IMG/VR virus record: IMGVR_UViG_3300036795_000039
Location: 3,417 to 67,416 of that record
Direction: 5' to 3' (one strand)
Source of the DNA: a virus
DNA length: 64,000 nucleotides
Positions 7,602-57,828 of this stretch are shown here, piece after piece. Position 1 is the first letter of the stretch; each line of letters starts with the position of its first letter. The notes beneath the pieces were generated by a model that was not told the DNA's origin, searched no databases, and was given only the letters and a program-made list of their open reading frames with translations. Both the position numbers and the translations under genes were made by a program.

Positions 7602-7621
7602 ACTGTCCCAAATGGGATAGT
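7602..7621 (+). promoter_or_regulatory. 20-bp palindromic operator-like site, copy 1 of 8
   Basis: ACTGTCCCAAATGGGATAGT, intergenic before scaffold gene. Confidence 0.75.
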
Positions 7622-11893: not shown

Positions 11894-11913
11894 ACTGTCC
11901 CAAAAGGGATAGT
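11894..11913 (+). promoter_or_regulatory. 20-bp palindromic site, copy 2
   Basis: ACTGTCCCAAAAGGGATAGT, intergenic. Confidence 0.75.
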
Positions 11914-21258: not shown

Positions 21259-21278
21259 ACTATCCCAAATGGGACAGT
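21259..21278 (+). promoter_or_regulatory. 20-bp palindromic site, copy 3, overlapping a gene start
   Basis: ACTATCCCAAATGGGACAGT. Confidence 0.75.
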
Positions 21279-32976: not shown

Positions 32977-33383
32977 TGGACAACAGCGAACTCGCGGCGG
33001 TCTTCAGCCTATCCGGCGTCGTAATCACCGCCCTTCTAACGACTTTGACCGCGATCCGCTCCGGCAAGGACCGCCGCGAGCGCACCGCCGACCGGCGCAG
33101 AATCGAAGAAGAGACAACCGATGTCATCCTGAAACGTGTTCGCAGAGAACTAGATCGGGCCTATGAGGTGATTGACATCAAGGACCGCAAGCTGCGCTTA
33201 TGCACGCGGTTCATTCACGTCAACCGAGAGCAGTTCGCCACGTTGGGAATTGAAGTGCCGGACCTAGACATTGACGAGGGTCCGACCGTGCGCGACGAGG
33301 CCCGCCGGGTCCGGTTCGAAATCGACACCGCCGCCGACGACGCACGCGAGGACGACCTGCTCGACAGGGACGGACCGCCGTGA
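32976..33383 (+). CDS. single-TM lysis-cassette protein
   Basis: N-terminal TM followed by charged coiled coil. Confidence 0.65.
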   Translation: MDNSELAAVFSLSGVVITALLTTLTAIRSGKDRRERTADRRRIEEETTDVILKRVRRELDRAYEVIDIKDRKLRLCTRFIHVNREQFATLGIEVPDLDIDEGPTVRDEARRVRFEIDTAADDAREDDLLDRDGPP

Positions 33384-33403
33384 CCCACTCTGATTTTGGG
33401 CAC

Positions 33404-33436
33404 AAAAAAAGCCCAGCAGGCCGAAGCCTACCGGGC
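33404..33436 (-). terminator. intrinsic terminator of the leftward operon, at the convergence point
   Basis: Minus strand GCCCGGTAGGC-TTCG-GCCTGCTGGGC-TTTTTTT. Confidence 0.88.
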
Positions 33437-33457
33437 TAATCTTGTTGCGCCACAACG

Positions 33458-33706
33458 CTATGCGAACTCGTCGTAACGCGCCTGTATCTCTGCTTGCACC
33501 CGCGCCACCTCTGACGCGTCGATCATGGTGAACTCGCCCAGCCACAGGATGTCATCCTGCGCGTGGTCGTTGGGTTGCCAGCCGCTGGCCGGTCGCCAGC
33601 TCTGCGCCGGGGCCGACAGCCATATGGGCATGTTGCCGTCTGTTGGCGCGTCAACCCGATACAACTTGGTGGCCGGTCCAGGCCCACCATTGCTGTAGTA
33701 CAGCAT
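33458..33706 (-). CDS. 82-aa protein, candidate immunity protein for an alarmone-synthetase toxin (IapK-like pattern)
   Basis: GGAGG RBS; YY....P..LYR....W......I..LGEF..I...EV pattern. Confidence 0.55.
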   Translation of the reverse strand: MLYYSNGGPGPATKLYRVDAPTDGNMPIWLSAPAQSWRPASGWQPNDHAQDDILWLGEFTMIDASEVARVQAEIQARYDEFA

Positions 33707-33714
33707 TTCAATCT

Positions 33715-33930
33715 TTACCTCCCGTTCAACTTGTTCGCTCGTTCCCATTGCTCCGCAATGGCTTTCGCTCCCTTCCTAGACGCGGCCTCCTGGCTGGTGA
33801 TCATTTTGCCCCCGCGCCCATGCTGACTCACGCAGATCATGCCCGTATGTCTGACCGGTGTTACTCGATAGACTCGGTCAGCACCACCATGCGCTATCAG
33901 GTTGACGCCTACAGCATTCCACTGCATCAT
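33715..33930 (-). CDS. small hypothetical protein
   Basis: GAGGTG RBS; operon continuity. Confidence 0.6.
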   Translation of the reverse strand: MMQWNAVGVNLIAHGGADRVYRVTPVRHTGMICVSQHGRGGKMITSQEAASRKGAKAIAEQWERANKLNGR

Positions 33931-33936
33931 GCCACC

Positions 33937-34077
33937 TCACATATAGAGTGACAGGCCGGTGTTCACCAGCTCGACTATCGCCGCGCCGATGTCACCGCCC
34001 GTCTGCTCGTCGGCGTACTGCGTGATCGCGGCCCACCGTGAAAACTGTTGCGGGTCAAGGGTAATCGACTCTTCCAT
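33937..34077 (-). CDS. 46-aa protein, possibly ribbon-helix-helix
   Basis: MEESITLDPQ..YADEQTGGDIGAAIVELVNTGL; TGATG coupling. Confidence 0.5.
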   Translation of the reverse strand: MEESITLDPQQFSRWAAITQYADEQTGGDIGAAIVELVNTGLSLYM

Positions 34078-34424
34078 CAGGCCACCGCCCCAGAGCTGCC
34101 GCCGTAGTAGCCGGGGCAGTAGGCCAGCTCTGCGTCGTGAACCATTGCCGCAGACTTGATTTGATCCAACTGCGACAACTGGTAGACCTTCGAGATCAGG
34201 CTGGACTCACTCACACCATCCATGCGCTGCTCGCAGATGAAGTGCGCGCCGTCGATTGCCGATGCTGCGCCGGACCTGTTGCTGATACCGTCACGGTCCA
34301 GCATGGACAGGTACTGGTTGTCCATGTCCATCGGGTCAGCATGTGCTGTGGGTACCATCAGGAACGCCGCTATGGCGCACCACACGGCGAAAGCCATGGC
34401 CCCGAACACATCTCGTGCTCTCAT
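34077..34424 (-). CDS. secreted DUF732-family protein
   Basis: Signal peptide ending PTAHA-DP; D..YL..L...GI, GAH.IC, AYCP. Confidence 0.82.
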   Translation of the reverse strand: MRARDVFGAMAFAVWCAIAAFLMVPTAHADPMDMDNQYLSMLDRDGISNRSGAASAIDGAHFICEQRMDGVSESSLISKVYQLSQLDQIKSAAMVHDAELAYCPGYYGGSSGAVA

Positions 34425-34428
34425 TGTG

Positions 34429-34512
34429 TTTTCCTCTCTCGCAACCGATTTGGCTGCTGAGCCAACCGCACTATCCCTTTTGGGACAGTGGGCTGGACTG
34501 CGGCCCTTCGGA
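34429..34512 (-). repeat. structured intergenic element copy 1; its variable stem is palindrome copy 4 (34470-34489)
   Basis: Minus strand GAAGGGCCGCAGTC-[stem]-GCTCAGCAGCCAAATCGGTTGC-GAGAGAGGAAA. Confidence 0.88.
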
Positions 34513-35667
34513 TTACGCTTCGACGTGAACCGTTCGACCGAACGGTCCCGTCATACTGGTGGTCGCGAGCCACAGGGTCGGTATCTCCGACGTGTCTGGC
34601 GCACGGCCACACAGGTCGGTGATGTACACGACACCCGCGATGTGCTCGCCCATGGCGACCAACTCATCGACCCGGTTGAACACTGGCCGAAAGTCCGTTC
34701 CGCCACCACCTTTCGCGGACAGCGGGCACTCGTCGCCTGGGGCCAACTCGATCTCGTCTTTGATCGCCGCGTCGGCGTCGAGGACCAGACCAGAGCAACC
34801 CGTTTCTGACAAGCACTCAGTGATTAGCGCGGAGTACGCCGACAACTGCTGGTTGCTGACCGAACCGCTTGTGTCCCTTGCGAACACGACCTTGCCTATC
34901 TCATCAGCCCGCTTGCGCGGGTAGATGACCGGCTGCCAGGCGTGCCGCCTAGCGGAGCGCGACCAGTCATTGCGGGTGGACATGGCGTCCTTCACAAAGT
35001 CCGCCATCTCGCGCCGCCAGTCAATCGACTGATGGCGTATCCGGTCCAGAATCCGTTGCAGGTCACCGGGAACGTCACCGACCCCCAGCGCTTGCGCAGC
35101 TTGCGCGGCCTGAATCACCGCGCCGTCCCACGCATCTCGCAACTCCTGGCTGGCCTGAGCGGCTGCCTGAGCGTCACCGGACGGGTCAGCAGCGGGTTCG
35201 CCGAACGTACCGCAGGGATCGCTTGCGCCCCCTTGGCTTTCGCCGCCCTTGCCGCCGCCGTCCTGTTGGTCAGGTTCGGGCAGACGTCCAAGAATTTCCT
35301 CACACGCCAGCCCGCGATACTGCGAGTCGGCCAGGCCACCATCCGGCATCTTGATATCGGCGATGTCCTGTAGCGTCAGGTTAATCTCATGGTCACCCGC
35401 GACGTTGCCGCGCTGGTCCGCCGGTAAACGCCACATGTGCTGGTGAGCACAGTGCAGTGTCTCATGTAGCAGGACGAATCGCAGTTCCTCATCGGACAGC
35501 GACTCCACAAAGGTTGGGTTCCAAGCGATCTCGCGACCGTTGGTGTGAGCCGTCTCAGTGGATGGGTCCAGCTTGTCGGGCAAGCGCATCGCCAGCGAAC
35601 CGTAGAACGGCTGGTTGGTCAGCGCCCACCACCGCGCTCTATCGATGCGCGTGGTTACTGATGTCAC
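34513..35667 (-). CDS. DUF2201-type metallopeptidase-VWA protein
   Basis: PFYG, TA.TNG, HETLH, N.A.D..IN; DTSGS MIDAS, GGGGTDFRPVF, YITD. Confidence 0.88.
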   Translation of the reverse strand: MTSVTTRIDRARWWALTNQPFYGSLAMRLPDKLDPSTETAHTNGREIAWNPTFVESLSDEELRFVLLHETLHCAHQHMWRLPADQRGNVAGDHEINLTLQDIADIKMPDGGLADSQYRGLACEEILGRLPEPDQQDGGGKGGESQGGASDPCGTFGEPAADPSGDAQAAAQASQELRDAWDGAVIQAAQAAQALGVGDVPGDLQRILDRIRHQSIDWRREMADFVKDAMSTRNDWSRSARRHAWQPVIYPRKRADEIGKVVFARDTSGSVSNQQLSAYSALITECLSETGCSGLVLDADAAIKDEIELAPGDECPLSAKGGGGTDFRPVFNRVDELVAMGEHIAGVVYITDLCGRAPDTSEIPTLWLATTSMTGPFGRTVHVEA

Positions 35668-35670
35668 TTT

Positions 35671-35755
35671 GGTTTCCTCTCTCGTGCAACCGATTTGGCT
35701 GCCGACCGGAGCTGGCCGAGGTTGCCCCCGACCAGTCCGACTGCGGCCCTTCAGA
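35671..35755 (-). repeat. structured intergenic element copy 2
   Basis: GAAGGGCCGCAGTC-GGACTGGTCGGGG(GCAA)CCTCGGCCAGCTCC-GGTCGGCAGCCAAATCGGTTGC-ACGAGAGAGGAAACC. Confidence 0.88.
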
Positions 35756-36556
35756 TTACTTGATACCTCCCAACACCGACAGGATGTCAGATGCTTGCTT
35801 GGCAACCTTGCGGCGTGCCTTGGCGTCGTCGCGAACGTCCTCCGCGTGGATCGTGGCCAGCGGCTCCATCGCCTTGACCACCGGGGCGAAATCGCCCGAA
35901 AAGTCAAGATCTGGAACCAGATTGGTGAGATCACGAATCGAGTCGAACACGGACGCGTACAGCTTGCCGTCCGCCTTACAGCGATCACGCACACGCCGCA
36001 ACGCCTCCGCGAGACGCGCACGCAGTTCCTTCTCGGCCTCTTCCGCCGAAGCTGCGAGCCATTCACCCCACGCGCCATCCGCCGGGGTCGGCAGGTACCG
36101 CGTGCCAAACGAGAACTTGCCCTCAATCTCGTTGCGGCTCGGCCACATTGACGCGTCAAACAGACCGTTCAACCGGGCCGGTGCGTTCCGCCGCTCCGAC
36201 TCGTAGTCGGCGAGGAATGCTGCCACCAGCTTGTTGTGACGATCTCCCAGCTTCCGCATGACCTCCGCGTGTTCGAACTCACGGCCAGCGGGCAACATCC
36301 GCATACCGTCCTGAGCGGACGGCAGCGTGAGCCGCCGGTGCTCCTGGTACGCTTCCGCGTGCAGCTTGGCGAGGTCAGACAGCGCCGGGTGATCCGACAC
36401 GCGAACAAGAACCTTGGCGGCATTGACGATACCGTGGGCCTCATTCACCGCGTGAGTTTCCTTGCGGTGCTGCCGCGTTGCCTGCCACCGGCCCGTGTTC
36501 AACACAGCCAGCTTGGTTCTCGCGGCTACCTCTTCGATGTTAATGATGTTATTCAT
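35756..36556 (-). CDS. DUF3150-like helical protein
   Basis: W...R, TLP....G.R.LP, F...Y, LF....P....I..KF pattern; sits between AAA and VWA genes. Confidence 0.6.
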   Translation of the reverse strand: MNNIINIEEVAARTKLAVLNTGRWQATRQHRKETHAVNEAHGIVNAAKVLVRVSDHPALSDLAKLHAEAYQEHRRLTLPSAQDGMRMLPAGREFEHAEVMRKLGDRHNKLVAAFLADYESERRNAPARLNGLFDASMWPSRNEIEGKFSFGTRYLPTPADGAWGEWLAASAEEAEKELRARLAEALRRVRDRCKADGKLYASVFDSIRDLTNLVPDLDFSGDFAPVVKAMEPLATIHAEDVRDDAKARRKVAKQASDILSVLGGIK

Positions 36557-36560
36557 CGGA

Positions 36561-36647
36561 TTTCCTCTCTTCACAACCGATTTGGCTGCTGAGCGAACCA
36601 CGCCGAGGTTGCCCCCGGCGGGTTCGACTGCCTCCCTTCGGATTTCG
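36561..36647 (-). repeat. structured intergenic element copy 3
   Basis: GAAGGGAGGCAGTC-GAACCCGCCGGGG(GCAA)CCTCGGCGTGGTTC-GCTCAGCAGCCAAATCGGTTGT-GAAGAGAGGAAA. Confidence 0.88.
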
Positions 36648-37691
36648 TCAGTTGACTGCGAACAGCTCTTGGTTCTCAGTGAACCAGAACACCCACTCTT
36701 TGCTGCCGGACAGCTTCGCGCCCAGCTTGCGGTACATGTCACGAGCCAGCAATGCACCGTAGACACGCGGCATCCGACTCATGTATTGCACGGCGGCTGT
36801 TGCATGTTGCTGCTCGACCGCTGCGGCCAGCATGGACGCGACCAGGTACAGCGCGGCTGGATCGTCGGGCACCGGAGCGCCCTTCGGGTCCATCCACACC
36901 TGGTCTGGTGTCGGCAGCTTGTTCGCCAACCGGGCGAACGCTAGGAACTCAGCCGCCGCCGGTTTCCCGATAGCAGCAGAGATGGACGACAAGTCCTGAA
37001 TCCCGTTCTGCCACAGGCGAATCACCGTCTCCCACGAGCGGTAGTCCGGCATACGGACGGCCGGGTGGGCGGACGGCTTCCAGTTGTACAGCGGCGAGTT
37101 TTCCTCGCGGGCACCAGTCGAACGGTGCCAGGCGATGATTTCCGCCGGAGCGCCGTTGTCCATCGCCCACTCGGTCCACTGCGCCACTTCGTCCTGCCAG
37201 GTACCCAGCATCACCGGGCCGTCTGCGGCGGTGTTCGCAGAACCGGGGGCCGGGATTTCGAACGCCAGGTGGAACCGTGACCGCAGCGGCTCGCAGAGCC
37301 GCGTCACACCGGCCACATCACCGGGCCGGTTGGTCGCGCCCCAAATGAGAACCTGCGGCGACAACGTCCCCTCATCGAACAACCGCATCAGCGCGGCCTG
37401 CACGTCGATGGGGGCCTGCCCCAGGTCATCGAGGAACAACAGTGTCGGCTCTGTGGTGGTCTGAAGATCGGCCAGCACATCGAGCGGAAGTGCCTTGGTG
37501 ACACCGGCTTTCATGTCCGGCACCAGGGCGCCCCCGAAGTCCACACGCTCGGACAGGCTCGCCCGCATCACTACGAGCCGCCTGCCCAGATCCTTTGCGA
37601 CGGCCGCGATTCGGGCTGTCTTGGCGCAACCGGGCGGGCCGACCAGCAATACTCGCTGACCAGCCGCCATCAGTGCGTTAAGTTTCGACAT
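36648..37691 (-). CDS. MoxR-like AAA+ ATPase
   Basis: Walker A GPPGCAKT, Walker B LLFLDD, ATN sensor, PLRSRF Arg finger, RSWE. Confidence 0.9.
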   Translation of the reverse strand: MSKLNALMAAGQRVLLVGPPGCAKTARIAAVAKDLGRRLVVMRASLSERVDFGGALVPDMKAGVTKALPLDVLADLQTTTEPTLLFLDDLGQAPIDVQAALMRLFDEGTLSPQVLIWGATNRPGDVAGVTRLCEPLRSRFHLAFEIPAPGSANTAADGPVMLGTWQDEVAQWTEWAMDNGAPAEIIAWHRSTGAREENSPLYNWKPSAHPAVRMPDYRSWETVIRLWQNGIQDLSSISAAIGKPAAAEFLAFARLANKLPTPDQVWMDPKGAPVPDDPAALYLVASMLAAAVEQQHATAAVQYMSRMPRVYGALLARDMYRKLGAKLSGSKEWVFWFTENQELFAVN

Positions 37692-37693
37692 AT

Positions 37694-37796
37694 GGTTTCC
37701 TCTCTCAGGCAGCCGGATTGCTCCGGCGCACAGCCAATTTGACTGCTGAGCAGGTACCACCAGGATCGCTGGTGGCCCTGACTGCGGCCCTTTGGT
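37694..37796 (-). repeat. structured intergenic element copy 4 (extra GCAA hairpin)
   Basis: AAAGGGCCGCAGTC-[stem]-GCTCAGCAGTCAAATTGGCTGT-GC-GCCGGA(GCAA)TCCGGC-..GAGAGAGGAAACC. Confidence 0.85.
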
Positions 37797-37822
37797 CTAA
37801 AGGTATTGCGCCACACCGACAC

Positions 37823-38029
37823 TCAATCGGCTTGGAACCCGAAGTACACACGCGGCGCGTGCTTGAACTCCAACGTGCCCTTCGCGCCGTCCGACCTGCG
37901 GACGACCGTAACGAACGGGGCGGCGAAGCCGATAAAGTCGTACAAGGCTTGCGCCTCAGCAAGACTCATCCCGGCTCCCGGCTCCGGCTCGCGACCGGAG
38001 TCGTAATTGTGAATCTCAATACCAGACAT
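37823..38029 (-). CDS. small conserved phage protein
   Basis: GGAGG RBS; F.GFAAPFV.V.RRSDG.KGTLEF.H.PRVYFGF. Confidence 0.7.
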   Translation of the reverse strand: MSGIEIHNYDSGREPEPGAGMSLAEAQALYDFIGFAAPFVTVVRRSDGAKGTLEFKHAPRVYFGFQAD

Positions 38030-38181
38030 CAACCCTCCCAGGTTAATTCGGATGGATCGAGGTAGATTACTTTGGTACCCCGAAGGATTCTGGCTAGGCC
38101 GTCCGGTGTCCACTTGTCGAAGACTCCGAAGAGCCGCTGGCTATGTGGTGGACACCAAGACACGCGGCTATGGCGGCTCAT
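38029..38181 (-). CDS. small hypothetical protein, 50 aa
   Basis: TGATG coupling at both ends. Confidence 0.4.
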   Translation of the reverse strand: MSRHSRVSWCPPHSQRLFGVFDKWTPDGLARILRGTKVIYLDPSELTWEG

Positions 38182-38303
38182 CAGCTCACCATGAGATCAT
38201 GTTCGTCCCACCAGGCCTGCGCGTCGTCCAGCACTTGGCTCAACTGCTCGACCAGGTACTCGGGACGCAGCGGTTTGTGCTGCCTGTCGTTGTATTCCTT
38301 CAC
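38181..38303 (-). CDS. small hypothetical protein, 40 aa
   Basis: GTG just after the GAGAGAGGAAAC of element copy 5. Confidence 0.55.
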   Translation of the reverse strand: MKEYNDRQHKPLRPEYLVEQLSQVLDDAQAWWDEHDLMVS

Positions 38304-38305
38304 GT

Positions 38306-38388
38306 GTTTCCTCTCTCGCAACCGATTTGGTTGCTGACCAGGAGCGCCCCGCCGGAGCGGGACGAACCTGACTGCGACCCTTCAGTTT
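38306..38388 (-). repeat. structured intergenic element copy 5
   Basis: GAAGGGTCGCAGTC-[stem]-GGTCAGCAACCAAATCGGTTGC-GAGAGAGGAAAC. Confidence 0.88.
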
Positions 38389-38577
38389 TCAGTTGTTATG
38401 CACCGCATCACACTCGACACCATCATCGCTCAGGCCGAAGGTGATTCGATCCATGGCACTATTTTGGATCATGTTACGAATCTGCCTGTCGGACAGCCGT
38501 TTACTGCCGGGGTAGGCAAACACCCTGCGGTATTGGTCCGCGTCGAACTCAACAGTGAAGTTGACCCGCACCTTCAT
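38389..38577 (-). CDS. small hypothetical protein, 62 aa
   Basis: GGAGGAAAC RBS; MKVRV.FTVE.D. Confidence 0.7.
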   Translation of the reverse strand: MKVRVNFTVEFDADQYRRVFAYPGSKRLSDRQIRNMIQNSAMDRITFGLSDDGVECDAVHNN

Positions 38578-39199
38578 TTTGTTTCCTCCCTTTGGGCAGC
38601 CACCATGGCTGCCTTACCGGCGCGCTGGTACGTGACCAGCACACTGGTAAGGCACCCCGCCAGTCACCGAAATGCCTTGCGGGATACCCCGTTTGAAGAG
38701 AGAGAGAAATCTTGTGCCATCCCGTGACCCGCCTGACCCCGTAGGTATCTCCGCATCCTTGTCACCGCTCAAGGCGGATTGACCTCACCGTTCAAGACGG
38801 GTTTGGCGACTGTCGATCACGACTAACGCACTCGTTCCGTCCGGCTCTTCAGCGCGGCTCGCGATATCTCTGCCCGCAGACGCGATGCGACCTGGGGGAG
38901 CCAGGGAAAGTCCCCCTGGCCGGTTCTGCCATGTTTCTCAACGGGGGGGCGGAAACCCGAACCCCGGAGCCGCGACCCGAAACAACGGACGCACTACGTG
39001 CAACCCAATGTTGACAACATATATTCCTGGTGACAACCCATTTACAGGAACCGGGGGTGTGATGTCCGTCACACCCTCTTAGGGGTGGCCGTGACCAGGA
39101 CGAATGACCCAGAATCAAGACCCCCACTCACCTGGTAGCACCGGACCAGGCAGGCCCCAACGTCGCTCAGCGGGCCACTCAGCCCCAGCACGGGGCGTT

Positions 39200-39556
39200 C
39201 TAGCAGCTCTCCCCGAAGGACTCCGGCCTACCGACCGCCTGGTGAATAGTCCGCACCGCTGCCGCACTGTGCCAGACCTGGCGATACCGCTGCTTAGAAC
39301 GCCGCACCGGCCCGAAGAACATGAGACACCACTGGCCGTCCGGTCGTTCTTCGGCGTATTGGAAGCGGTAACGTCCTGCGGCATAACCGATCCCGCGTTC
39401 AAGCGTGGCTTCCTGGTTGCGCGCCAACGGTTTTCCGTTGATCTCAATCTCATAGTGGATGACTGGCTGTAGCTCGTCGGACTCGTAGGGCCTACGTGCG
39501 ATCACTTCATGCCCTTCACCGCGCACACCGCGCACTGGCGGCTCCGGCAATACCAC
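39200..39556 (-). CDS. hypothetical protein (true start may be GTG at 39505)
   Basis: ORF with GRYRF...W...FGP pattern. Confidence 0.5.
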   Translation of the reverse strand: MVLPEPPVRGVRGEGHEVIARRPYESDELQPVIHYEIEINGKPLARNQEATLERGIGYAAGRYRFQYAEERPDGQWCLMFFGPVRRSKQRYRQVWHSAAAVRTIHQAVGRPESFGESC

Positions 39557-39665
39557 GGCAACACCTTGCCGCAGTCCTTACATTTAACTTCTCGCATGTC
39601 GCTGCCCTCTCTAACAGTTCAATGCCGTATTGTGTTGTCTACCACCAGCATACAGGAGGTTGACA

Positions 39666-40421
39666 ATGAGCAGTTCACGAACACTAAACGTGTTCAGCCT
39701 TAACGGGTACATGGGCAATATGTGGTTTGGCCCGCAAGCCGAAGTCGCACAACACCTTTCAGCCCTAGGGCTGGCGTACTGGCAGCCCATCGGCTACGAC
39801 AGCGGCGCGTTCCCGTTATCGACGGGCGTCTCGTCGGGCCTCGCCGAACTGCGCCGCCAGCGCAGCCTGCACCCCGGCCCATTTATGATCACCGCGTGGT
39901 CAGAGGGCGCATGCATCGCCACCGAATACCTCAAGACCGACACGTCCAGTGATCTGCGCGGCGGTGTGTTCTACGGCAACCCATACAGGGCTGCGGGGCA
40001 ATGGAGCCCAAGCGGGAACGCTTTGGGCGCGGTGCGTGATCCTGGCGGTGCTGGCGTCGGCGGACCCCAAAAGAACTGGCGCACACCAGATAGCATCCAC
40101 CACTACTGCCACGGGCCGAACCAGCCCAGCTACGACGGCCTACCCGGTATCGATCAATACACCTGTTGCAGCACAGGCACAGACGGAGATATCGCGCGGA
40201 TCTTCTACAACTTCGTGTTCACCCAATGGACGGGCGCATTCACCGAGATCCTTACCGTCGCAGAGGAATTGGCAACGAACGCGGGCGTCACCCTCTTTGC
40301 GGCTATCGAGACAGCCATCGAGTGGATCAGGTTCTTCGCCGGACAGTGTGTCCCACATACGGACTACACGTCATATGCCGGTCAGCAGTATCTCGCGAAC
40401 CTCGCGCACTCCCTACCGTAG
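39666..40421 (+). CDS. lysin B-like / PE-PPE cutinase-fold serine esterase, catalytic domain only
   Basis: WQPIGY...FP...V..G, AWSEGA nucleophile elbow, YGNPYR, D.Y, PHTDY; AGGAGG RBS. Confidence 0.82.
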   Translation: MSSSRTLNVFSLNGYMGNMWFGPQAEVAQHLSALGLAYWQPIGYDSGAFPLSTGVSSGLAELRRQRSLHPGPFMITAWSEGACIATEYLKTDTSSDLRGGVFYGNPYRAAGQWSPSGNALGAVRDPGGAGVGGPQKNWRTPDSIHHYCHGPNQPSYDGLPGIDQYTCCSTGTDGDIARIFYNFVFTQWTGAFTEILTVAEELATNAGVTLFAAIETAIEWIRFFAGQCVPHTDYTSYAGQQYLANLAHSLP

Positions 40422-40475
40422 AGAATGCTGTACGCCAGTTATCACGAAACCCGTTGTGCCCGTTGACCAGGGATG

Positions 40476-40505
40476 TTGACAATGTCAGAGGGTGCGCGTA
40501 CAAAT
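40476..40505 (+). promoter_or_regulatory. putative SigA-type promoter of the rightward arm
   Basis: TTGACA-17-TACAAAT. Confidence 0.4.
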
Positions 40506-40561
40506 ATGGGAGTCCCGCAAATCGGCGGGCAATAACTCATCGAGAGAAGGGCACGATCATC

Positions 40562-41407
40562 GTGGCAGGACGAATCCCCACCAAGGGGGCACCAGGGCCA
40601 AAGACTGTTACTCCCAAGAAGACAGCAGCGCCCAAGAAGACAGCAGCGCCGAGCAAGGCAGTCGCCGTGGTGGACAAAGACAAGTTGGACACCGACGTCA
40701 CCAAGGCCAGAGCTACTCAGCTCACCAAGCGCATCAAGGACTCTCACGTCAACACCTGGAAGCTGTTGGCCGAAGCAGCCAAGGGCCGCGCGTGGAAAGC
40801 GTTGGGGTACAAGAACTGGAACGAGTGGCGGGACAAGGAATTCTCGGATCTGCCGATCCTTCCCCGCGACAAGCGCAAAGAGGCCGTGGCCAGCCTCGCC
40901 AAAGATGGCCTATCGGTTCGTGCCATCTCGGACATCACCGGGGCAAGTAAGTCTCAGGTGGATCGCGACCGCGCCGCAGCACTGGGGTTGTCGCAGCCCA
41001 CTGTCCCAAATGGGACAGTGAAGAAGGACGACAACGTGATCGACATCCCCGCGAGCGACATCACCGAAGTCCCCGACGGCGGCGGCGGCGAAAGTGGCGA
41101 GGGCGCAAGCGATCCTGAGCCAACGCCCACCATCGGGCGCGATGGCCGCGTAACCGACACCACCAACATCGGCAAGACACCAACCGTGATCAACGTGGTA
41201 TCGGTAGCACGCACCATCGCCAACGAGCTGGCCAACGTGCGCATACGTCTCGACTCACTGTTTGCCCGCGAAGACTACGAGGAGAACAAGGTCGACGTTC
41301 AAGGCACGCTGGAAACAGCAGTAGGCGACATCATTGACACGCTGGTGGAAGAATTCGCCGACCTAATCTCGGAGCGTATGCCGGAGCCGGAACCGGCAGG
41401 GGCATAA
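40562..41407 (+). CDS. helix-turn-helix DNA-binding protein
   Basis: AW.ALGY..W..W...EF; GLSVRAISDITGASKSQVDRD HTH; GRDGR; 18-bp tandem repeat (PKKTAA x2) at 40613-40648. Confidence 0.82.
   Translation: MAGRIPTKGAPGPKTVTPKKTAAPKKTAAPSKAVAVVDKDKLDTDVTKARATQLTKRIKDSHVNTWKLLAEAAKGRAWKALGYKNWNEWRDKEFSDLPILPRDKRKEAVASLAKDGLSVRAISDITGASKSQVDRDRAAALGLSQPTVPNGTVKKDDNVIDIPASDITEVPDGGGGESGEGASDPEPTPTIGRDGRVTDTTNIGKTPTVINVVSVARTIANELANVRIRLDSLFAREDYEENKVDVQGTLETAVGDIIDTLVEEFADLISERMPEPEPAGA
41000..41019 (+). promoter_or_regulatory. 20-bp palindromic site, copy 5, inside the HTH gene
   Basis: ACTGTCCCAAATGGGACAGT. Confidence 0.75.
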
Positions 41408-41515
41408 CATGATTCAGCCCCGGCGGCGAGCAATGTCAAGGTTTAGAGAGGAAACCAAACCGCCGGGGCCGAACACATGTTCCGCAGCAGGACGCGCCGA
41501 ACAATCTAAGGATAC

Positions 41516-42061
41516 ATGGTGAAACAGAATCTAGCCAATAGGCTTGCCGCAGGGGGCTTTTGGGCACTACAGATCGGTTGGCTCAGCGTCGAGGTAGCCG
41601 ACCATCTCAAGTCCGAGGGCACCACAGTTCCGATCGGAAGCGGTTCTCCTACAGAGGTTTTGACGGTCTGCACACTGGGTGCGTTCGAGCATTTCGTCAA
41701 TGTCCATATGGACGACATGCGGATGAACGTCAAGGTGAAATTCGAGGAGCCGTCGCCGAAGCTGTACGACAAATACTGCCAGGAGATAACCCGTGAGCAG
41801 TGGGCGAAGCTACACCAGCATCCCACGTACGATCGGATCGCGCTGTGGCACAGCGATTCTGAGCATAGGCACGTATCCACGATATGGACCGGCCTAGACG
41901 AGAACCACTGCGAGCCGCCGCATATCTTCGAGACAATGGTGGTCCACGTCCACGGCCAGAACCAGGGACACATTGCCAGAGTGTTCAAGACACGCAACCT
42001 CGCGGAGGCCCGCGCCGCGCACCACGAAGCCGTCGCTCTAGTCAAGGCAGGGCGTCTATAA
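41516..42061 (+). CDS. hypothetical protein (start uncertain)
   Basis: VSTIWTGLD......PP.IFETMV...EARA.H pattern of a common phage family. Confidence 0.6.
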   Translation: MVKQNLANRLAAGGFWALQIGWLSVEVADHLKSEGTTVPIGSGSPTEVLTVCTLGAFEHFVNVHMDDMRMNVKVKFEEPSPKLYDKYCQEITREQWAKLHQHPTYDRIALWHSDSEHRHVSTIWTGLDENHCEPPHIFETMVVHVHGQNQGHIARVFKTRNLAEARAAHHEAVALVKAGRL

Positions 42062-42064
42062 AAA

Positions 42065-42098
42065 CAGCAACCAAATCGGTTGCGCAAGAGAGGAAACC
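42065..42098 (+). repeat. partial (3-prime half) copy of the structured element, on the + strand
   Basis: CAGCAACCAAATCGGTTGC-GCAAGAGAGGAAACC. Confidence 0.8.
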
Positions 42099-42105
42099 GA
42101 AAGAA

Positions 42106-42750
42106 ATGTCAACCACCTCAATGATGCAGATCGACGAGCTAGACGCGGAAACCCTGCGGATACCCGTCATCGGCACCAGTCCACTTATCACCCACAACTG
42201 GTCAGAGAAGGCCAAGCGGATGATGCTGGAAAAGCAACAGGGACGTAAGAACCCGAAGGAAAACCGCGACCCGCAGGCCGAATTCGAGTCATCGAAGTAC
42301 CGGATCTATGTGCCAAAAGCAAAGGGCGGTAAGCCCGTTGAAGCCTGCGGCGTGCCCGTCGTGGCATTCAAGTCGGCCACTACGTCAGCGGCCCGCTTCT
42401 ACGACAAGTCCGTTTCCATGGTGTCGCTACGACAGTTCATGTTCTTCAAGGGCGTCGTAACCAAAGCCGACGCGCAAGAGCTGTTCCAGATCGTCGGGGA
42501 ACCGGAGATGCGCGAGGACATGGTCACCGTTGGCATCAGCGGAACCGACTTGCGTTACCGCGCATGCTTTTACGAGTGGTCAACCACCCTGCAAATCACC
42601 TACGTCAAAAGCTGCATCTCTCAGGGCAGCGTGTTGTCGTTGGTCGACGCGGGCGGCTTCGGTGTCGGTGTCGGGGAGTGGCGTCCAGAGAAAAACGGCC
42701 AGATGGGCTGCTACACCATCGACCGCAGTCGCGATATCGAGGTGCTGTAA
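42106..42750 (+). CDS. stand-alone Cas7/RAMP-like protein, 214 aa
   Basis: I.GTSPLI.H first strand; GVP..AFKSA...AAR helix; MREDMV.V....DLRYR thumb-like hairpin; W...L.I.Y; Gly-rich loop GGFGVGVGEWRPEKNGQMG. Confidence 0.7.
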   Translation: MSTTSMMQIDELDAETLRIPVIGTSPLITHNWSEKAKRMMLEKQQGRKNPKENRDPQAEFESSKYRIYVPKAKGGKPVEACGVPVVAFKSATTSAARFYDKSVSMVSLRQFMFFKGVVTKADAQELFQIVGEPEMREDMVTVGISGTDLRYRACFYEWSTTLQITYVKSCISQGSVLSLVDAGGFGVGVGEWRPEKNGQMGCYTIDRSRDIEVL

Positions 42751-43185
42751 ATGGCTTCTGTGCGTGAGGAATTGCGCCGCATCTATACATCACAAGGGGG
42801 TGAGCTAACACCACAGGCTGTGGTGGATGCGGCGCGTCGGAAGAACTCACCTTTGAATTCCTACTTCGAGTGGGATGATCGCGTGGCTGGTGAGGCGTAT
42901 CGAATCGTGCAGGCGCAGGACTTGATTCGTCGTCAGTTCAAGGTTTATGCGCGAGACAAGCGTGGCCCCAAGCACGTTCGCGAGTATGTCAGCGTCTACC
43001 AGGCCGGGGGTTCCGACACGGGCGCATACAGGCTCACTGAAGAGGTTGTGGTCGACCCTATTTCGGAGGCTATCCTGCTTCGAGAATTTCAGCGTGACAT
43101 TGATAACTTGAAGCGGCGCTACGGTCACTTTAAGGAATTCGGTCGGCTCGTGAGAGAGGCGTTGGGAGAGGAGGATTCAGCGTAA
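42751..43185 (+). CDS. conserved partner protein, 144 aa
   Basis: GELTP.AVVDAAR..SPL..YFEWDD..A.E.YR..QA..LIR; abuts upstream stop (TAAATG). Confidence 0.8.
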   Translation: MASVREELRRIYTSQGGELTPQAVVDAARRKNSPLNSYFEWDDRVAGEAYRIVQAQDLIRRQFKVYARDKRGPKHVREYVSVYQAGGSDTGAYRLTEEVVVDPISEAILLREFQRDIDNLKRRYGHFKEFGRLVREALGEEDSA

Positions 43186-43189
43186 ACAT

Positions 43190-43559
43190 GGCAGGCGTGG
43201 CAGGCATGGCTAGGTTGGGTCCGGCAAGGCTCGGCTCGGCATGGCCCGGCAGGCGCGGCACGGCGTGGCACGGTATGGCCTGGCGCGGCAGGCATGGCTC
43301 GGCGCGGCCCGGCTTGGTGTGGTTGGGTATGGCAACGCTTGGCTGGGCAGGGCAGGCGTGGCGAGGCAAGGCGAGGCACGGCAGGGCGCGGCAGGGCAGG
43401 CGTGGCAAGGCCTGGCGGGGTTCGGCTTGGCTGGGTCCGGCATGGCCGGGTCCGGCATGGCCAGGCACGGCAGGCTCGGCGCGGCTAGGCACGGCTCGGC
43501 AAGGTGTGGGCATGGCGCTCGGCTTGGCTCGGTGTGGCATGGCTTGGTTTGGCAGGCAA
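43190..43559 (+). repeat. GGY-NN pentamer array divided by GGCA tetramers; probable non-coding guide RNA array
   Basis: More than 60 GG(C/T)NN units in register; GGCA separators at 43190, 43199, 43248, 43287, 43351, 43395, 43469, 43551. Confidence 0.9.
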
Positions 43560-43680
43560 GGATAAGGGAGTGGGATGTGTTGTTACGGATAGGATCTCGT
43601 TACACCCTGGCGCAGGCGTGGCGAATCTTCAAGCGCGCCAGACAATTCGCAAATTTACGAGAAGACAGGGAGATCGAGCT

Positions 43681-44040
43681 GTGGCTAGTGGCAATACGTC
43701 GAGTGCGACCGTAGACGACGTGATCTGCGGGGCAAAGGAATTGATTGTCCGGTACGGCTGGCAGCGCGGCGCGTGGCCACCGTTTGGACCTGCACCACGT
43801 TGCCTGCGGGCCGCGCTGTACACGGCGGCAGGAAATCTGGATTGCCTTGCCACACGGACGCATACCGACGCGTTGCGGCGCGTCTCTGGGGCAATCTATA
43901 AGCCCGGCAGCGTCGGCGGCATCACCGACTGGGAATTCCGTAAGGACACCAACCGGGACGTCGTTATCTCTGTGCTACAGAAGGCAATTGAGCTAGGGCC
44001 AACCGAGCCTGAGATACGCGGCGAACTGTGGCCAGTCTGA
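43681..44040 (+). CDS. DUF6197-like hypothetical protein
   Basis: A..LI..YGWQRG...CL..AL...I.DW......V...L..A. Confidence 0.65.
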   Translation: MASGNTSSATVDDVICGAKELIVRYGWQRGAWPPFGPAPRCLRAALYTAAGNLDCLATRTHTDALRRVSGAIYKPGSVGGITDWEFRKDTNRDVVISVLQKAIELGPTEPEIRGELWPV

Positions 44041-44426
44041 TGGACAAGCTGCACTATAAGGGTGATTGCCGAAAGTTCGTGCCTAACAGGATCGTTGGGC
44101 CGGACACCTGGGGCGCATGGTACATCCCCGTCACGGCGCACTACTTCAACGGGATCACCACGATCTTTTACAAGCCGGTCCCGCCCGACAAGCTACCACC
44201 ACAGTGTGTCGAAATGTCGAAACAGGTTGTGGCGCAACAGCAACAAGGAAAGGTGCAACAATGGCCGCGAGACGGAAGCGGACCCTCACCAGAGCCGAGG
44301 TCGCAGCCGCAATCGCTGCAATACCAAATCTTGCGGCGCAGCGCCGGGAAGACGGGCGCGTCCAAAGGTTCAGGGCTCACGAAATCGCAACGCGAGTTGC
44401 TGAAGCGTTTCAAGAAGCGGGGATAG
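44028..44426 (+). CDS. hypothetical protein; 3-prime part overlaps a probable small gene at 44261-44440
   Basis: Operon continuity; AGGAAAGG RBS before ATG 44261. Confidence 0.45.
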   Translation: MASLMDKLHYKGDCRKFVPNRIVGPDTWGAWYIPVTAHYFNGITTIFYKPVPPDKLPPQCVEMSKQVVAQQQQGKVQQWPRDGSGPSPEPRSQPQSLQYQILRRSAGKTGASKGSGLTKSQRELLKRFKKRG

Positions 44427-44436
44427 AGGTGAGGCA

Positions 44437-45102
44437 ATGAGCGACGAAGCACGCAGGGCCGCAGGGATTCTCACACAATGTAAATGGTTGCGTGACAGCA
44501 TCAGCAAGTGGGAGGCGCAGGCCAAGGAAATCCTGGCCCGCGAGCTGACCGGCGGCGAGCGCACCAAGGCGGTCGCGGCGGATGGCACTGAGATCGGTTC
44601 TGTCACAAGGGCAGAGGGCGCACGTTCGATGCAGATCGACAACGAGGCCGGGTTTCTGGCGTGGGTGAAGCAACGCTATCCCACGGAGGTAGAAGAAACA
44701 GTGCGTCCGGCGTTCGTCAAGCTGTGCGCCGAGAAGGTGAAGCTGCTAGGCGGTTTGCCGGATGCGAATGGTGAACTGTGCCCGCATGTTTCAATGGTGC
44801 GCGCCGACCCGAAGACCAGCGTGTCACCGCTATCTAATGACGACCGCGCGCTGATCGAGGCGCTGTTTAGGCAACACACTTGGGAGAACCTGACAACCAT
44901 GGTTATGTCGGATAATCCCGCGCTTCCGCCTGCGCCACAACAGGATTGCTCGCTGGGTGATGCCGTCACTGTCCCAAAAGGGACAGTCGAACCCGAACCC
45001 GGCACTGAGCCTGAGCCGTTCATTGAAGAGGGACCGCCAAACTGGGCTGAGTCCAACACGTTTGAGACTTCTGACGCTGTACACCAGCGGCGGATGAGAT
45101 AA
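44437..45102 (+). CDS. hypothetical protein of recombination module; contains palindrome copy 6 (44968-44987)
   Basis: FLAWV...YPTEV...VRPAF motif; upstream of ERF gene. Confidence 0.7.
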   Translation: MSDEARRAAGILTQCKWLRDSISKWEAQAKEILARELTGGERTKAVAADGTEIGSVTRAEGARSMQIDNEAGFLAWVKQRYPTEVEETVRPAFVKLCAEKVKLLGGLPDANGELCPHVSMVRADPKTSVSPLSNDDRALIEALFRQHTWENLTTMVMSDNPALPPAPQQDCSLGDAVTVPKGTVEPEPGTEPEPFIEEGPPNWAESNTFETSDAVHQRRMR

Positions 45103-45123
45103 ATCCCTAGAGAGGAAACCGAA

Positions 45124-45462
45124 GTGAAGATCACCATTAAGCAGGACGGCGATATCTGCATGGAAACCAACGGTGCCACACCGGCAGAGATAGCCGGAGT
45201 GATACTGAGCGTGCAGCGTGAGCTACGTAAGACCGATTTGACAAAGCTGGCCGAGGACCGGCCAGTTGATTTGAGCGATATGCAGGGCGCGACGTATGAC
45301 TGGATGATCGCGCACGACAAGGATCAGGGCATTCACATATCCAGTATCGCAAGAGCGTTCAGCATCTCGAATGGTGCTGCGGGACAACGCTGCTACCAAC
45401 TAGTCAAGGACGGCTTCGCAACCAAGATCTGCAACGGTCGGTACCGCGCGGTGACGCAATGA
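45124..45462 (+). CDS. winged-HTH-like protein
   Basis: AGAGAGGAAACC RBS; IARAFSIS.GAA..RC..LV..G.A......GRYRA. Confidence 0.65.
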   Translation: MKITIKQDGDICMETNGATPAEIAGVILSVQRELRKTDLTKLAEDRPVDLSDMQGATYDWMIAHDKDQGIHISSIARAFSISNGAAGQRCYQLVKDGFATKICNGRYRAVTQ

Positions 45463-46451
45463 CTGAGCCCGTTAAGAAACCACCGGCCAAGCGGGCACCC
45501 CGACGTGCCAAGCCGAAACCGGAGGTAGCGGTGACACCGACACCGGATTCGGAAACCGTTGGGGACAATCGGACCACTATTTCCGGTTCCGGCGTTGGGC
45601 CGATGCTGGTAACCCAAGGACCACCACAGGAGAAGATATATTTGACTGTTCACGAATTGTGGTCCCGTGTAATGGAATCCGTTCGCTCTGTGGCCAAGGG
45701 TGACTTCAATGAGGATCAGGGCTTCAAGTTTCGAGGTGTTGATTCGGTGGTTGACCAGGTCGGCCCGGCGTTGCGCACTTTTGGCGTACATATCAGGCCC
45801 CGGCGAATCCTTGAGCACCACGCTACGGAGTACACCACCAAGCGCGGCTCGCGCATGGTTAACCGTGTGGTTCGTGTGGAGTGGGAAGTCACTGGACCGC
45901 AAGGTGATTCGTTTCTTGGCGAGTCGATGGGTGAGGCAGCCGACGCCGGGGACAAGTCCTTGACCAAGGCGCAGTCTGTGGCGTACAGGGTGTATCTGCT
46001 TCAGGCGCTTAGCATTCCGACCGGCGAACGCGATGCCGACGCTGACGCTCACGAGCGTGACACGCCAGCGGCCAGCGAGGGCCATTACTGGGATCAGCAG
46101 CAGGAGCAGCAATACAGCCGCCAGCGGCCATCTGGGGGCCAGGACGCGGCACGCCAAGCCCAAGCCGGGGAGGACAACCAGGCGGCACAAGTGGACAACG
46201 AGGATGCCCGCAAGGAAATGTGGCGTGTCGCAAAAGGATTGGGCTGGGAATGGGGCAAGCTCGCGGCCAGGTTCAAAGCCGATCACGGCACCGAATCCAA
46301 CAGGGCACTACCCGCCGTCATCAACGCCTTCACTAACACGTTGATTAGTGAGGCAGAGGCCGAGGAGGATAAAGCTAAGGCGACGGCGGCAGAAGTGTTG
46401 GGGGCCAAGGAAGTTGCACCCGACGAGGCGCAGCCTGGCGGTGTGCTCTGA
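45459..46451 (+). CDS. ERF-family ssDNA annealing protein
   Basis: QGFKFRGVD.V...V.PAL...G, GP.GD, GEA.D.GDK...KAQSVAY. Confidence 0.85.
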   Translation: MTEPVKKPPAKRAPRRAKPKPEVAVTPTPDSETVGDNRTTISGSGVGPMLVTQGPPQEKIYLTVHELWSRVMESVRSVAKGDFNEDQGFKFRGVDSVVDQVGPALRTFGVHIRPRRILEHHATEYTTKRGSRMVNRVVRVEWEVTGPQGDSFLGESMGEAADAGDKSLTKAQSVAYRVYLLQALSIPTGERDADADAHERDTPAASEGHYWDQQQEQQYSRQRPSGGQDAARQAQAGEDNQAAQVDNEDARKEMWRVAKGLGWEWGKLAARFKADHGTESNRALPAVINAFTNTLISEAEAEEDKAKATAAEVLGAKEVAPDEAQPGGVL

Positions 46452-50602: not shown

Positions 50603-50872
50603 TTGAAGTGCTTAACCATTACGGTCGATGACCGCGAACTATTTAGCGGCGAGGTCGCCGAGCTACAGTGGACCGAAACTGCGGACTCTGTAGGTGTCAC
50701 AGCACGTTTCACTCCGGCCCCGTCGATTATGGATTCTCTCAAGCAGTTTGGTGCGGCAGCGCAGCAGAAGAAACAACAGGCCGAGCCACCGCCGCCACTG
50801 TCCCAAACGGGACAGTCACCAGCGGAGCCGCCACACTTGGTACCGCCTCTCGACACAGTGGACGGCGAATAG
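50603..50872 (+). CDS. hypothetical protein; contains palindrome copy 7 (50797-50816)
   Basis: AGAGAGGA RBS before TTG. Confidence 0.6.
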   Translation: MKCLTITVDDRELFSGEVAELQWTETADSVGVTARFTPAPSIMDSLKQFGAAAQQKKQQAEPPPPLSQTGQSPAEPPHLVPPLDTVDGE

Positions 50873-57808: not shown

Positions 57809-57828
57809 ACTGTCCCAAATGGGACAGT
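57809..57828 (+). promoter_or_regulatory. 20-bp palindromic site, copy 8 (in the ORF ending 57920)
   Basis: ACTGTCCCAAATGGGACAGT. Confidence 0.75.

Follow-up and report, generated by a model that had tools for sequence, protein, structure and literature searches.

The 64,000-base stretch analysed here (hereafter, the window) comprises bases 3417-67416 of the 67,416-base virus record IMGVR_UViG_3300036795_000039 in IMG/VR, which is rated complete by CheckV. Virion genes run rightward to ~33.4 kb, a leftward block occupies 33.4-38.6 kb, and rightward genes resume from ~39.6 kb. Read 5'→3' in the direction of transcription, the leftward block starts with genes for proteins of 62, 40, 50 and 69 amino acids (aa) and for a MoxR-like AAA ATPase. 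These are followed by the genes for a 266-aa protein without a known family, a DUF2201 metallopeptidase/vWA protein and a DUF732 secreted protein, and finally by three small genes. The subject of this study is an element of ~80 bases that recurs between these genes. It consists of a long hairpin with a constant base and a variable tip, followed by a strong ribosome-binding site (RBS). The coordinates of its copies and of the associated features are collected in Table 1.

Table 1. Element copies and associated features in the window (aa, amino acids; CM, score with covariance model R1; z, folding score against dinucleotide shuffles; MFE, minimum free energy; SD, Shine-Dalgarno sequence)
Feature	Position	Strand	Setting and composition	CM (bits)	z
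Copy 1	34427..34521	-	between DUF2201/vWA and DUF732 genes; MFE fold is the rod; 5' box, variable stem CACUGUCCC-AAAA-GGGAUAGUG (a genome-wide palindrome), 3' box, extended SD	86.9	-6.09
Copy 2	35672..35764	-	between 266-aa and DUF2201/vWA genes; GCAA tetraloop	89.3	-3.38
Copy 3	36559..36651	-	between MoxR-like AAA ATPase and 266-aa genes; GCAA tetraloop	90.4	
Copy 4	37696..37805	-	upstream of ATPase gene	75 (over 37716-37805)	
Copy 5	38304..38395	-	upstream of 40-aa gene; UCCG tetraloop	81.8	
Structured leader of first gene	38574..38709	-	CU tract UUUCUCUCUCUCUUC (38695-38709), two hairpins, third hairpin, SD GGGAGGAAAC, ATG 38577		-5.12
Partial copy	42067..42096	+	hairpin GCAACC-AAAUC-GGUUGC and AGAGAGGAAA; rightward gene start 42106; no 5' box, no variable stem	12.9	-2.25
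RBS motif AGAGAGGAAA alone	45109..45118	+	5 nt before GTG start 45124		
Intrinsic terminator, end of leftward operon	33410..33437	-	canonical; 12-bp stem, then UUUUUUU		
Second palindrome, eight sites	7604-7619, 11896-11911, 21261-21276, 34472-34487 (-), 41002-41017, 44970-44985, 50799-50814, 57811-57826		(CAC)TGTCCC-AAAW-GGGACA(GTG)		

All five full copies were found on the minus (sense) strand at the places given in the original prediction, a reading of the sequence that preceded this analysis, and their occurrence is far above chance. The 3' box GCAGYCAAATYGGYTGY gave 7 matches with up to two mismatches (0.15 expected), the 5' box RAAGGGNNGCAGTC gave 5 with up to one mismatch (0.62 expected), and the RBS motif AGAGAGGAAA gave 12 with up to one mismatch (1.73 expected); the observed number was reached by 0 of 100 dinucleotide shuffles in each case. 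The seven 3'-box matches are made up of the five copies, the partial copy at 42067 (+) and a two-mismatch match at 54107, which is probably a chance occurrence. Each copy spans the distance from a stop codon to the next start and thus fills its intergenic gap, as had been proposed. When a covariance model (R1) made from the aligned copies was run on the whole record, it returned exactly the five full copies and, with a rough E-value of 0.19 (the E-values of this model are all rough), a weak partial copy at 42061-42097 (+).

Relatives of the region were reached through the ATPase, which has many close metagenome homologues (among them ATPases of 80-89% identity in Logan and JGI contigs), and 80 loci were fetched. 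Nine further full copies were found: six in the locus L034, whose ATPase is 85% identical, two in L035 (76% identical), which also has a truncated third, and one in L144, an Actinomycetota metagenome-assembled genome (MAG). L034 and L035 are the only carriers among the 80 ATPase loci, and their copies lie at orthologous gaps; the covariance model found no match in the other 78 of the 81 sources. The L144 copy (3977-4068, minus strand; G001:C19:9722-9813) belongs to the MAG chromosome. It has a different Shine-Dalgarno (SD) sequence (AAGGAG), lies between two small secreted-protein genes and adjoins an MMPL transporter gene. No homology was found between the DUF732 protein of the window and the two open reading frames (ORFs) flanking this copy, which is the only match in 151 genomes sampled from the order of the MAG (28 candidates scored per genome). 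A search of IMG/VR for exact 17-mer matches returned 27 loci, all of which lack the flanking boxes. The gapped box pattern gave 8 IMG/VR loci, none of which is real, and at least 120 genome-contig stretches; among the 128 listed loci (8 from IMG/VR and 120 from genome contigs), the L144 copy alone is real. An ATPase-based scan of IMG/VR gave no relatives.

One candidate from these scans was set aside. The IMG/VR contig L033 (GC content 64%) carries tandem iterons GCAACCAAATCGGTTG with the same 16-mer as the 3' box; they have no flanking boxes, and the match was judged a coincidence. These iterons lie inside a replication-initiator-like gene, which is followed by a DnaB-like helicase gene (both assigned by eye only).

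The 14 full copies, which come from four sources and include orthologues, were aligned with MAFFT (95 columns, 22 invariant positions). The stem that had been described as differing in sequence yet always paired is indeed so: changes on both sides were found in 9 of the 11 variable-stem pairs. The main fold, however, was absent from that account. In this fold, the 5' box pairs with the 3' box and lengthens the variable stem into a rod. This rod is the RNAalifold consensus of the whole alignment, obtained unguided and with 22-23 consensus pairs, and RNAfold gave the same structure for copies 1, 2 and 5. In the tested 23-pair structure, 93.9% of the 314 cells are paired as compared with 79.1% in shuffles, and 11 of the 23 pairs show changes on both sides. 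The check by covariation in homologues that the original prediction had called for thus turned out positive, with compensatory changes present across the 14 copies. Folding z-scores against dinucleotide shuffles are -6.1, -3.4, -4.7, -1.5 and -3.0 for copies 1-5.

The pairs between the two boxes were then scrutinized by alignment column. At pair 13-75, 12 copies have G-C and two, one being copy 4, have A-U; the pair is broken in none. Pair 19-68 is C-G in eight copies, U-A in three (copy 5 among them) and an A.G mismatch in three, including copy 3, whose 5' box reads GGGAGGCAG. The U-A copies at the latter pair represent three different sites, and their orthologues there carry C-G. Column 75 is a loop position in the local hairpin described below, so that only the rod accounts for its covariation. 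Copy 4 has the compensated variants CCAA/UUGG, and in copy 5 GGGUC pairs with GCAACC. An additional hairpin (37709-37729) is inserted in copy 4 between the 3' box and the SD (37696-37705).

The fold was proposed to act at the RNA level, and the compensatory changes agree with this. G-U or U-G combinations occupy 28 cells as compared with only 2 for A-C or C-A. The minimum free energy (MFE) averages -40.2 kcal/mol on the sense and -32.8 kcal/mol on the antisense strand, a mean gain of 7.4 kcal/mol, and 13 of the 14 copies fold more stably as sense than as antisense RNA. GNRA tetraloops close 5 of the 14 stems and UNCG tetraloops 2, together 7 of 14. From the G-U excess, the sense-strand stability and the RNA-type tetraloops, we conclude that the fold belongs to the transcribed strand. 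Conservation along the rod is uneven: the unpaired A15, G16, A71 and A72 are invariant or nearly so and stand beside invariant pairs; the upper stem, in contrast, varies freely. The variable stems may differ wholly even at orthologous sites with unchanged boxes (in 22 of 31 and 21 of 30 columns). Conservation of this kind, in the loops and the lower stem, is consistent with a factor or a nuclease that recognises the lower rod. Readings of the loops as a K-turn or an RNase E motif were made by eye only and were unconvincing.

The original prediction also contained a built-in alternative pairing, in which an upstream GCAGUC replaces GCAGCC as the partner of GGUUGC. An alternative pairing does exist, but its partners are others. 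GCAGUC:GGUUGC can form in all 14 copies; however, half of its pairs are G-U, and it costs ~10 kcal/mol when forced. The states that compete are the rod of the 5' and 3' boxes and a local hairpin within the 3' box, GCAGCC-AAAUC-GGUUGC. The means of the forced folds are -39.3 kcal/mol for the rod, -38.9 for the hairpin and -29.6 for GCAGUC:GGUUGC, and in single copies the rod and the hairpin are 0.4-4.7 kcal/mol apart. Copy 3 has its MFE in the hairpin state, and its rod lies 2.8 kcal/mol above this. Because the two energies are nearly equal, a two-state design is plausible, with partners other than those first named. When compared with the commonest pair, the local hairpin shows one-sided variation only; one orthologous comparison, w_c4 with L034_3, differs on both sides (G-C versus A-U).

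A switch had been suggested; one that hides the RBS was not borne out. The mean predicted unpaired probability of the SD is 0.70 with the 5' box free and 0.70 with it held single-stranded, as it would be by a terminating ribosome, and the predicted accessibility of the initiation region is 0.61 and 0.59, respectively. As the predicted SD accessibility is unchanged, a switch does not act by hiding the RBS. The RBS motif AGAGAGGA can form eight pairs, one being G-U, with the 16S tail CCUCCUUUCU of the copy-carrying MAG; much of the conservation of this motif is therefore that of an extended SD.

The hairpin-plus-SD layout is also found at the start of the leftward block. A "divergent copy" had been placed at 38581-38643; this region gave no covariance-model match at E up to 10 and proved to be part of a separate leader, which has only the hairpin-plus-SD layout in common with the element. 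The third hairpin of the leader is GGCAGCC-AUGGU-GGCUGCC (38595-38613). In the MFE fold, the CU tract and the SD of the first gene are paired and enclose the three hairpins. This tract is identical in L034 (1582-1596) while its flanks differ, the architecture of the leader is kept there (1582-1715), and one leader stem shows a compensated change. The first gene itself is not conserved between the window and L034. By reading, the CU tract is also complementary to GAGAGAG or GAAGAGAG in the RBSs of other cistrons.

Rods at the same place were also seen in distant relatives. In 59 loci, both the ATPase and the next gene could be placed, with gene starts set by a crude rule that tends to shorten gaps. 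The gap downstream of the ATPase is at least 35 nt in 40 of these 59 loci, and 21 of the 40 fold with z below -2. A second rod family (family B) was found in 13 of the 80 relatives' loci (L044, L046-L051, L070, L081, L085, L087, L091 and L097), with ~60% ATPase identity; its rods begin 3-8 bases past the ATPase stop. Family B has a conserved lower helix GAGA/UCUC with an internal loop (GAGAYCUCAUC ... UCAGYUCUC) and a covarying upper stem: 6 of its 16 pairs show double changes in the 11 of 13 sequences that were aligned. Its rod is followed by C/A-rich sequence without a strong SD, and by eye it has no evident counterpart of the competing hairpin. The family B rods and the folded gaps indicate that a stop-proximal rod is a general feature among these relatives.

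With regard to transcription, we looked for signals in and around the leftward block. The sequence after the elements is GAGAGAGGAAA, no U-tract stands behind any copy, and only 33437-33410 qualifies as a terminator in the sense orientation. Two sigma-70-like sites were found in 9.5 kb as compared with 2.2 expected; both lie outside the elements, and none lies between genes. Because a single canonical terminator stands at the end and the elements have neither a sigma-70-like site nor a U-tract, the leftward genes are presumably transcribed as one operon.

The uncultured phage is presumably actinobacterial. In protein searches, its portal protein is 54.5% identical to Mycobacterium abscessus prophage portals, and only virion genes fall near mycobacteriophages. 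The matches of the ATPase and the vWA protein are all below 60% identity, and the top records among the matches listed are non-actinobacterial phages. Megablast against 50,697 phage records gave no nucleotide-level relative of the region. A Pfam scan covered 67 of the 84 called ORFs (the other 17 are mostly in the virion-gene region); in these 67, no recombinase, RNase III or RNA-binding family was found, and most proteins are family-less.

Other repeats of the window were noted. The second palindrome of Table 1 occurs at 8 sites as compared with 0.02 expected matches. The sites lie both in gaps and in ORF interiors, in different reading frames, and the A-rich centre is on the local sense strand in 8 of 8. 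The site at 34472 is the variable stem of copy 1, and a similar hairpin occurs in the leader of the L079 ATPase gene; the palindrome may be an operator or an RNA hairpin. Three 93-base repeats (23410-23775; 61-71% identity to the reference copy) lie inside a 1377-aa ORF at 23065-27198, the first two adjacent and the third 180 bases further. In addition, a 5-base periodic array, (GGCNN)n, occupies 43201-43554 within overlapping rightward ORFs.

The explanation that we favour, tentatively, is that the element is an intercistronic module for processing, transcript stability and RBS insulation, like the RNase III sites of T7. The element would then be a cis-acting sense-strand mRNA structure of one leftward polycistronic operon. 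Right after the stop codon, the 5' box (A-A-C-Y-G-A-A-G-G-G-C-C-G-C-A-G-U-C) pairs with the 3' box (G-C-U-C-A-G-C-A-G-C-C-A-A-A-U-C-G-G-U-U), and the variable stem stacks on this pairing to give an irregular rod of ~25 bp with constant internal loops (AG opposite AAA, and C opposite A). We infer that the lower rod, which is conserved, and its loops would serve as the recognition and cleavage site of a host endonuclease, either double-strand-specific or loop-specific. After such a cut, the upstream cistron would retain the variable stem as a protective 3' hairpin, and the downstream cistron would begin with the short 3'-box hairpin against the 8-bp extended SD, which is predicted to be single-stranded whatever gene adjoins. 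In favour of this module are the sense-strand fold, the covarying rod, the conserved lower part, the signs of a single operon, the rods and folded gaps of relatives, the SD that is open in both states, and the precedent of T7. Among the roles listed in the original prediction, that of a processing site seems to fit best. Cassette shuffling has some support from the sequences, apparently as a side effect (a chimeric copy and gene replacement at junctions, described below), and antitermination has no support.

Several points weigh against the processing module. Copy 4 alone is not significant as compared with shuffles (z -1.45). Overlapping or abutting genes of the same leftward operon have no element. 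The covariation counts overstate the number of independent events because only four sources supplied the 14 copies, some of which are orthologues, and the cleavage, together with its position and its enzyme, is a step that we infer. Finally, two features are not needed by processing alone: the 3'-box local hairpin is paired in 100% of cells in the 14 copies, and in 11 of the 14 the distance from the end of the stop codon to column 10 is 0-9 nt. The perfect local hairpin and the proximity of the stop fit a ribosome-driven switch at least as well.

In such a switch, a ribosome at the upstream stop would melt the 5' box, the 3' box would refold into the local hairpin, and the translation or the fate of the next cistron would be set by a route other than cleavage. 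This could take the form of modular translational coupling or of a shunt-like hand-over across the base of the rod. The usual ribosome footprint would reach the 5' box from the stop distance just given. Each 3'-box base has a partner in both states, the rod- and hairpin-forced folds are nearly isoenergetic, and the hairpin with its SD stands alone at 42067 (+) and in the leader. Moreover, the invariant RAAGGG of the 5' box is SD-like, being complementary, by eye, to CCUUUC of the 16S tail with one G-U. Nevertheless, the switch has no evident output, as the predicted accessibility of the SD and the initiation region is unchanged when the 5' box is held single-stranded, and the local hairpin lacks a double-sided change relative to the commonest pair, apart from the single orthologous comparison mentioned above. 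Besides, the stop is 22-26 nt away in 3 of the 14 copies, and the family B rods have no competing hairpin evident by eye. We regard this switch as possible but unlikely. Similarly doubtful is an elaboration of it, a reusable ribosome-actuated intercistronic switch in which the melted rod would expose the SD-like RAAGGG, the 3' box would form its hairpin beside the true SD, processing or initiation would depend on translation of the preceding cistron, and the anti-SD CU tract of the leader would serve as a master gate.

The element could also be an operator for a phage or host RNA-binding protein, which would bind the 3'-box hairpin with its loop AAAUC, or the AG/AAA loop of the lower rod, and repress or activate the cistrons coordinately. 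T4 RegA and the coat proteins of RNA phages act at RNA operators. What is kept in the loop and the lower stem is sequence and not structure alone, as seen in the 22 invariant columns; the hairpin lies 1-8 nt from the SD in 12 of the 14 copies, and the site is common to several cistrons in the manner of a regulon. Against this, the 67 scanned ORFs contain no RNA-binding Pfam family, which is a weak objection as most proteins are family-less, and the first gene cannot encode the shared factor because it is not conserved between the window and L034. We consider the operator improbable.

A primary role at the DNA level would make the repeats joints for homologous recombination that shuffle cassettes in the manner of PeSL elements, with the RNA fold being secondary. 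Recombination between copies does seem to happen. The copy L035_2 (L035 1352-1445) is chimeric, with a 5' box GGGAGGCAG of the copy-3 type and a 3' box, RBS and spacer GGUCGGCAGCC...GCACGAGAGAGGAAAA of the copy-2 type, which suggests a crossover inside the element. The similarity between copy 1 and L034_6 extends across the whole element and ends at the start codon; the genes that follow are unrelated, with DUF732 encoded in the window and a 64-aa protein encoded in L034. Moreover, L034 has an additional element with an additional small gene. The copy in the bacterial chromosome and the wholly different variable stems between unchanged boxes at orthologous sites point the same way. Recombination needs sequence identity only, however, and leaves the compensatory changes, the 28:2 excess of G-U, the tetraloops and the strand bias unexplained; unlike PeSL, the module has no promoter, and no recombinase family was found in the scanned ORFs. 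This role is quite improbable as the primary one.

Equally improbable is control at the level of transcription, by partial terminators or attenuators that would grade expression, or by rods that would block Rho loading in untranslated gaps. It is true that strong GC-rich hairpins stand directly past the stop codons, that relatives have similar hairpins at the same place, and that gaps of ~90 nt would otherwise be exposed. However, none of the copies has a U-tract behind it. The terminator of this operon, in contrast, is a textbook one that has seven Us. Mycobacterial RNA polymerase generally needs a U-tract. Neither role needs the conserved boxes and the competing hairpin.

The remaining proposals are an operator or promoter at the DNA level, comparable to the ESAS of Cluster K phages, for which the 3' box as a 17-bp imperfect palindrome and the same 16-mer in the iterons of an unrelated phage contig could be cited, and a self-cleaving ribozyme, for which the conserved boxes and helix layout could in principle be catalytic; both are very improbable, as the asymmetry of the palindrome is the same in 10 of the 14 copies (G opposite T at pair 68-78) and is explained by the RNA rod, the two boxes covary within one genome unlike independent half-sites, no sigma-70-like hexamers are present, and no ribozyme or other family matched in Rfam at E up to 1.

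The window contains one structured RNA module reused between no fewer than five genes. It shows covariation and two near-isoenergetic folds, and distant relatives have a structural equivalent at the corresponding site. This matters because annotation usually treats phage operons as strings of ORFs, and knowledge of how phages of actinobacteria control the stability and yield of single cistrons is scarce. If the element acts in processing or insulation, it would be the natural counterpart of synthetic ribozyme-hairpin-RBS insulators and a candidate part for mycobacterial expression. If it is a ribosome-driven switch, it would represent a new coupling of cistrons across long gaps, a modular device copied five times in one operon.

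The element was finally compared with known systems. The original prediction had proposed an Rfam search; cmscan of 33000-46000 against Rfam 15 at E up to 1 gave no family for the element, the only match being a weak, unrelated one at 33394-33438, where the terminator lies (E 0.09). The 12-mer CCAAATCGGTTG led, in full-text search, to two unrelated papers only, and literature searches for comparable actinophage elements gave SAS/ESAS only; the element was not found in print there. Integron attC sites have conserved imperfect inverted ends, a variable centre and a strand-specific fold, and lie directly behind cassette genes. The element shares the inverted ends around a variable centre, the place directly behind genes and the strand-specific fold. 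By reading, it has no RYYYAAC/GTTRRRY cores, its copies are tied to an SD, and no tyrosine recombinase was found in the 67 scanned ORFs. The PeSL of T4-type phages, as described in the available text of PMC2839356, is a cassette of a strong sigma-70 promoter and a terminator stem-loop. Similar to it are the small repeated stem-loop modules at gene boundaries of a variable region and the signs of recombination between copies; unlike the PeSL so described, the element lacks a promoter-like site and a U-tract, and its fold is selected on the RNA strand.

In the accessible parts of PMC3203893, the SAS of Cluster K is a 13-bp motif GGGATAGGAGCCC, typically 3-7 bp before start codons, and the ESAS consists of 17-bp imperfect inverted repeats with a spacer of 4-13 bp, or of 12-14 bp according to PMC11373665. 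As far as these two sources were available, ESAS carry SigA-like -35/-10 hexamers, their variation does not support RNA pairing, and the authors treat them as a DNA-level promoter-operator. The likeness lies in a repeated RBS motif near the starts of non-structural genes with long gaps in phages of Mycobacteriales (PMC3203893, PMC11373665, PMC12699233, each as far as available), and in imperfect inverted repeats around a variable spacer that precede many copies in one orientation. The SAS motif itself gave 2 matches with two mismatches in the window as compared with 1.41 expected, neither near the elements. In contrast to ESAS, the element has a hairpin between its boxes, which are separated by 33-36 nt; it contains no site resembling a promoter, and its variation is of the compensatory kind (pairs 13-75 and 19-68; G-U:A-C 28:2). 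The question of what such repeats do in mycobacteriophages is sharpened here because the RNA reading can be distinguished from the DNA reading.

Other close likenesses concern RNA structures between cistrons. The REP sequence in malE-malF is a protective intercistronic stem-loop, and REPs are genome-wide and mobile. The element resembles REP and the plastid intercistronic expression element (PMC2230500, in its available part) in being a structured RNA between cistrons that would give stable, translatable units. It differs from them in that sequence and host are unrelated and, as far as described, they have no box pair or competing hairpin; unlike REP, it is confined to one operon, plus the single chromosomal MAG copy. 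For function, the closest analogue is found in T7, whose polycistronic early precursor has five signals at which E. coli RNase III acts; these substrates are of about two helical turns, and their internal loops give single-strand cuts that leave stabilising 3' hairpins (PMC3867540, in the portion available). There is no sequence similarity to the T7 signals, and the competing hairpin, the extended SD and the freely variable upper stem set the element apart, its cleavage being putative. Like those signals as described, the element is a repeated irregular hairpin of about two turns with internal loops (22-23 pairs, with AG/AAA and C/A loops), located between genes of a presumed operon and just before an RBS, with no terminator tail. 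We regard it as a new family within a familiar class of elements.

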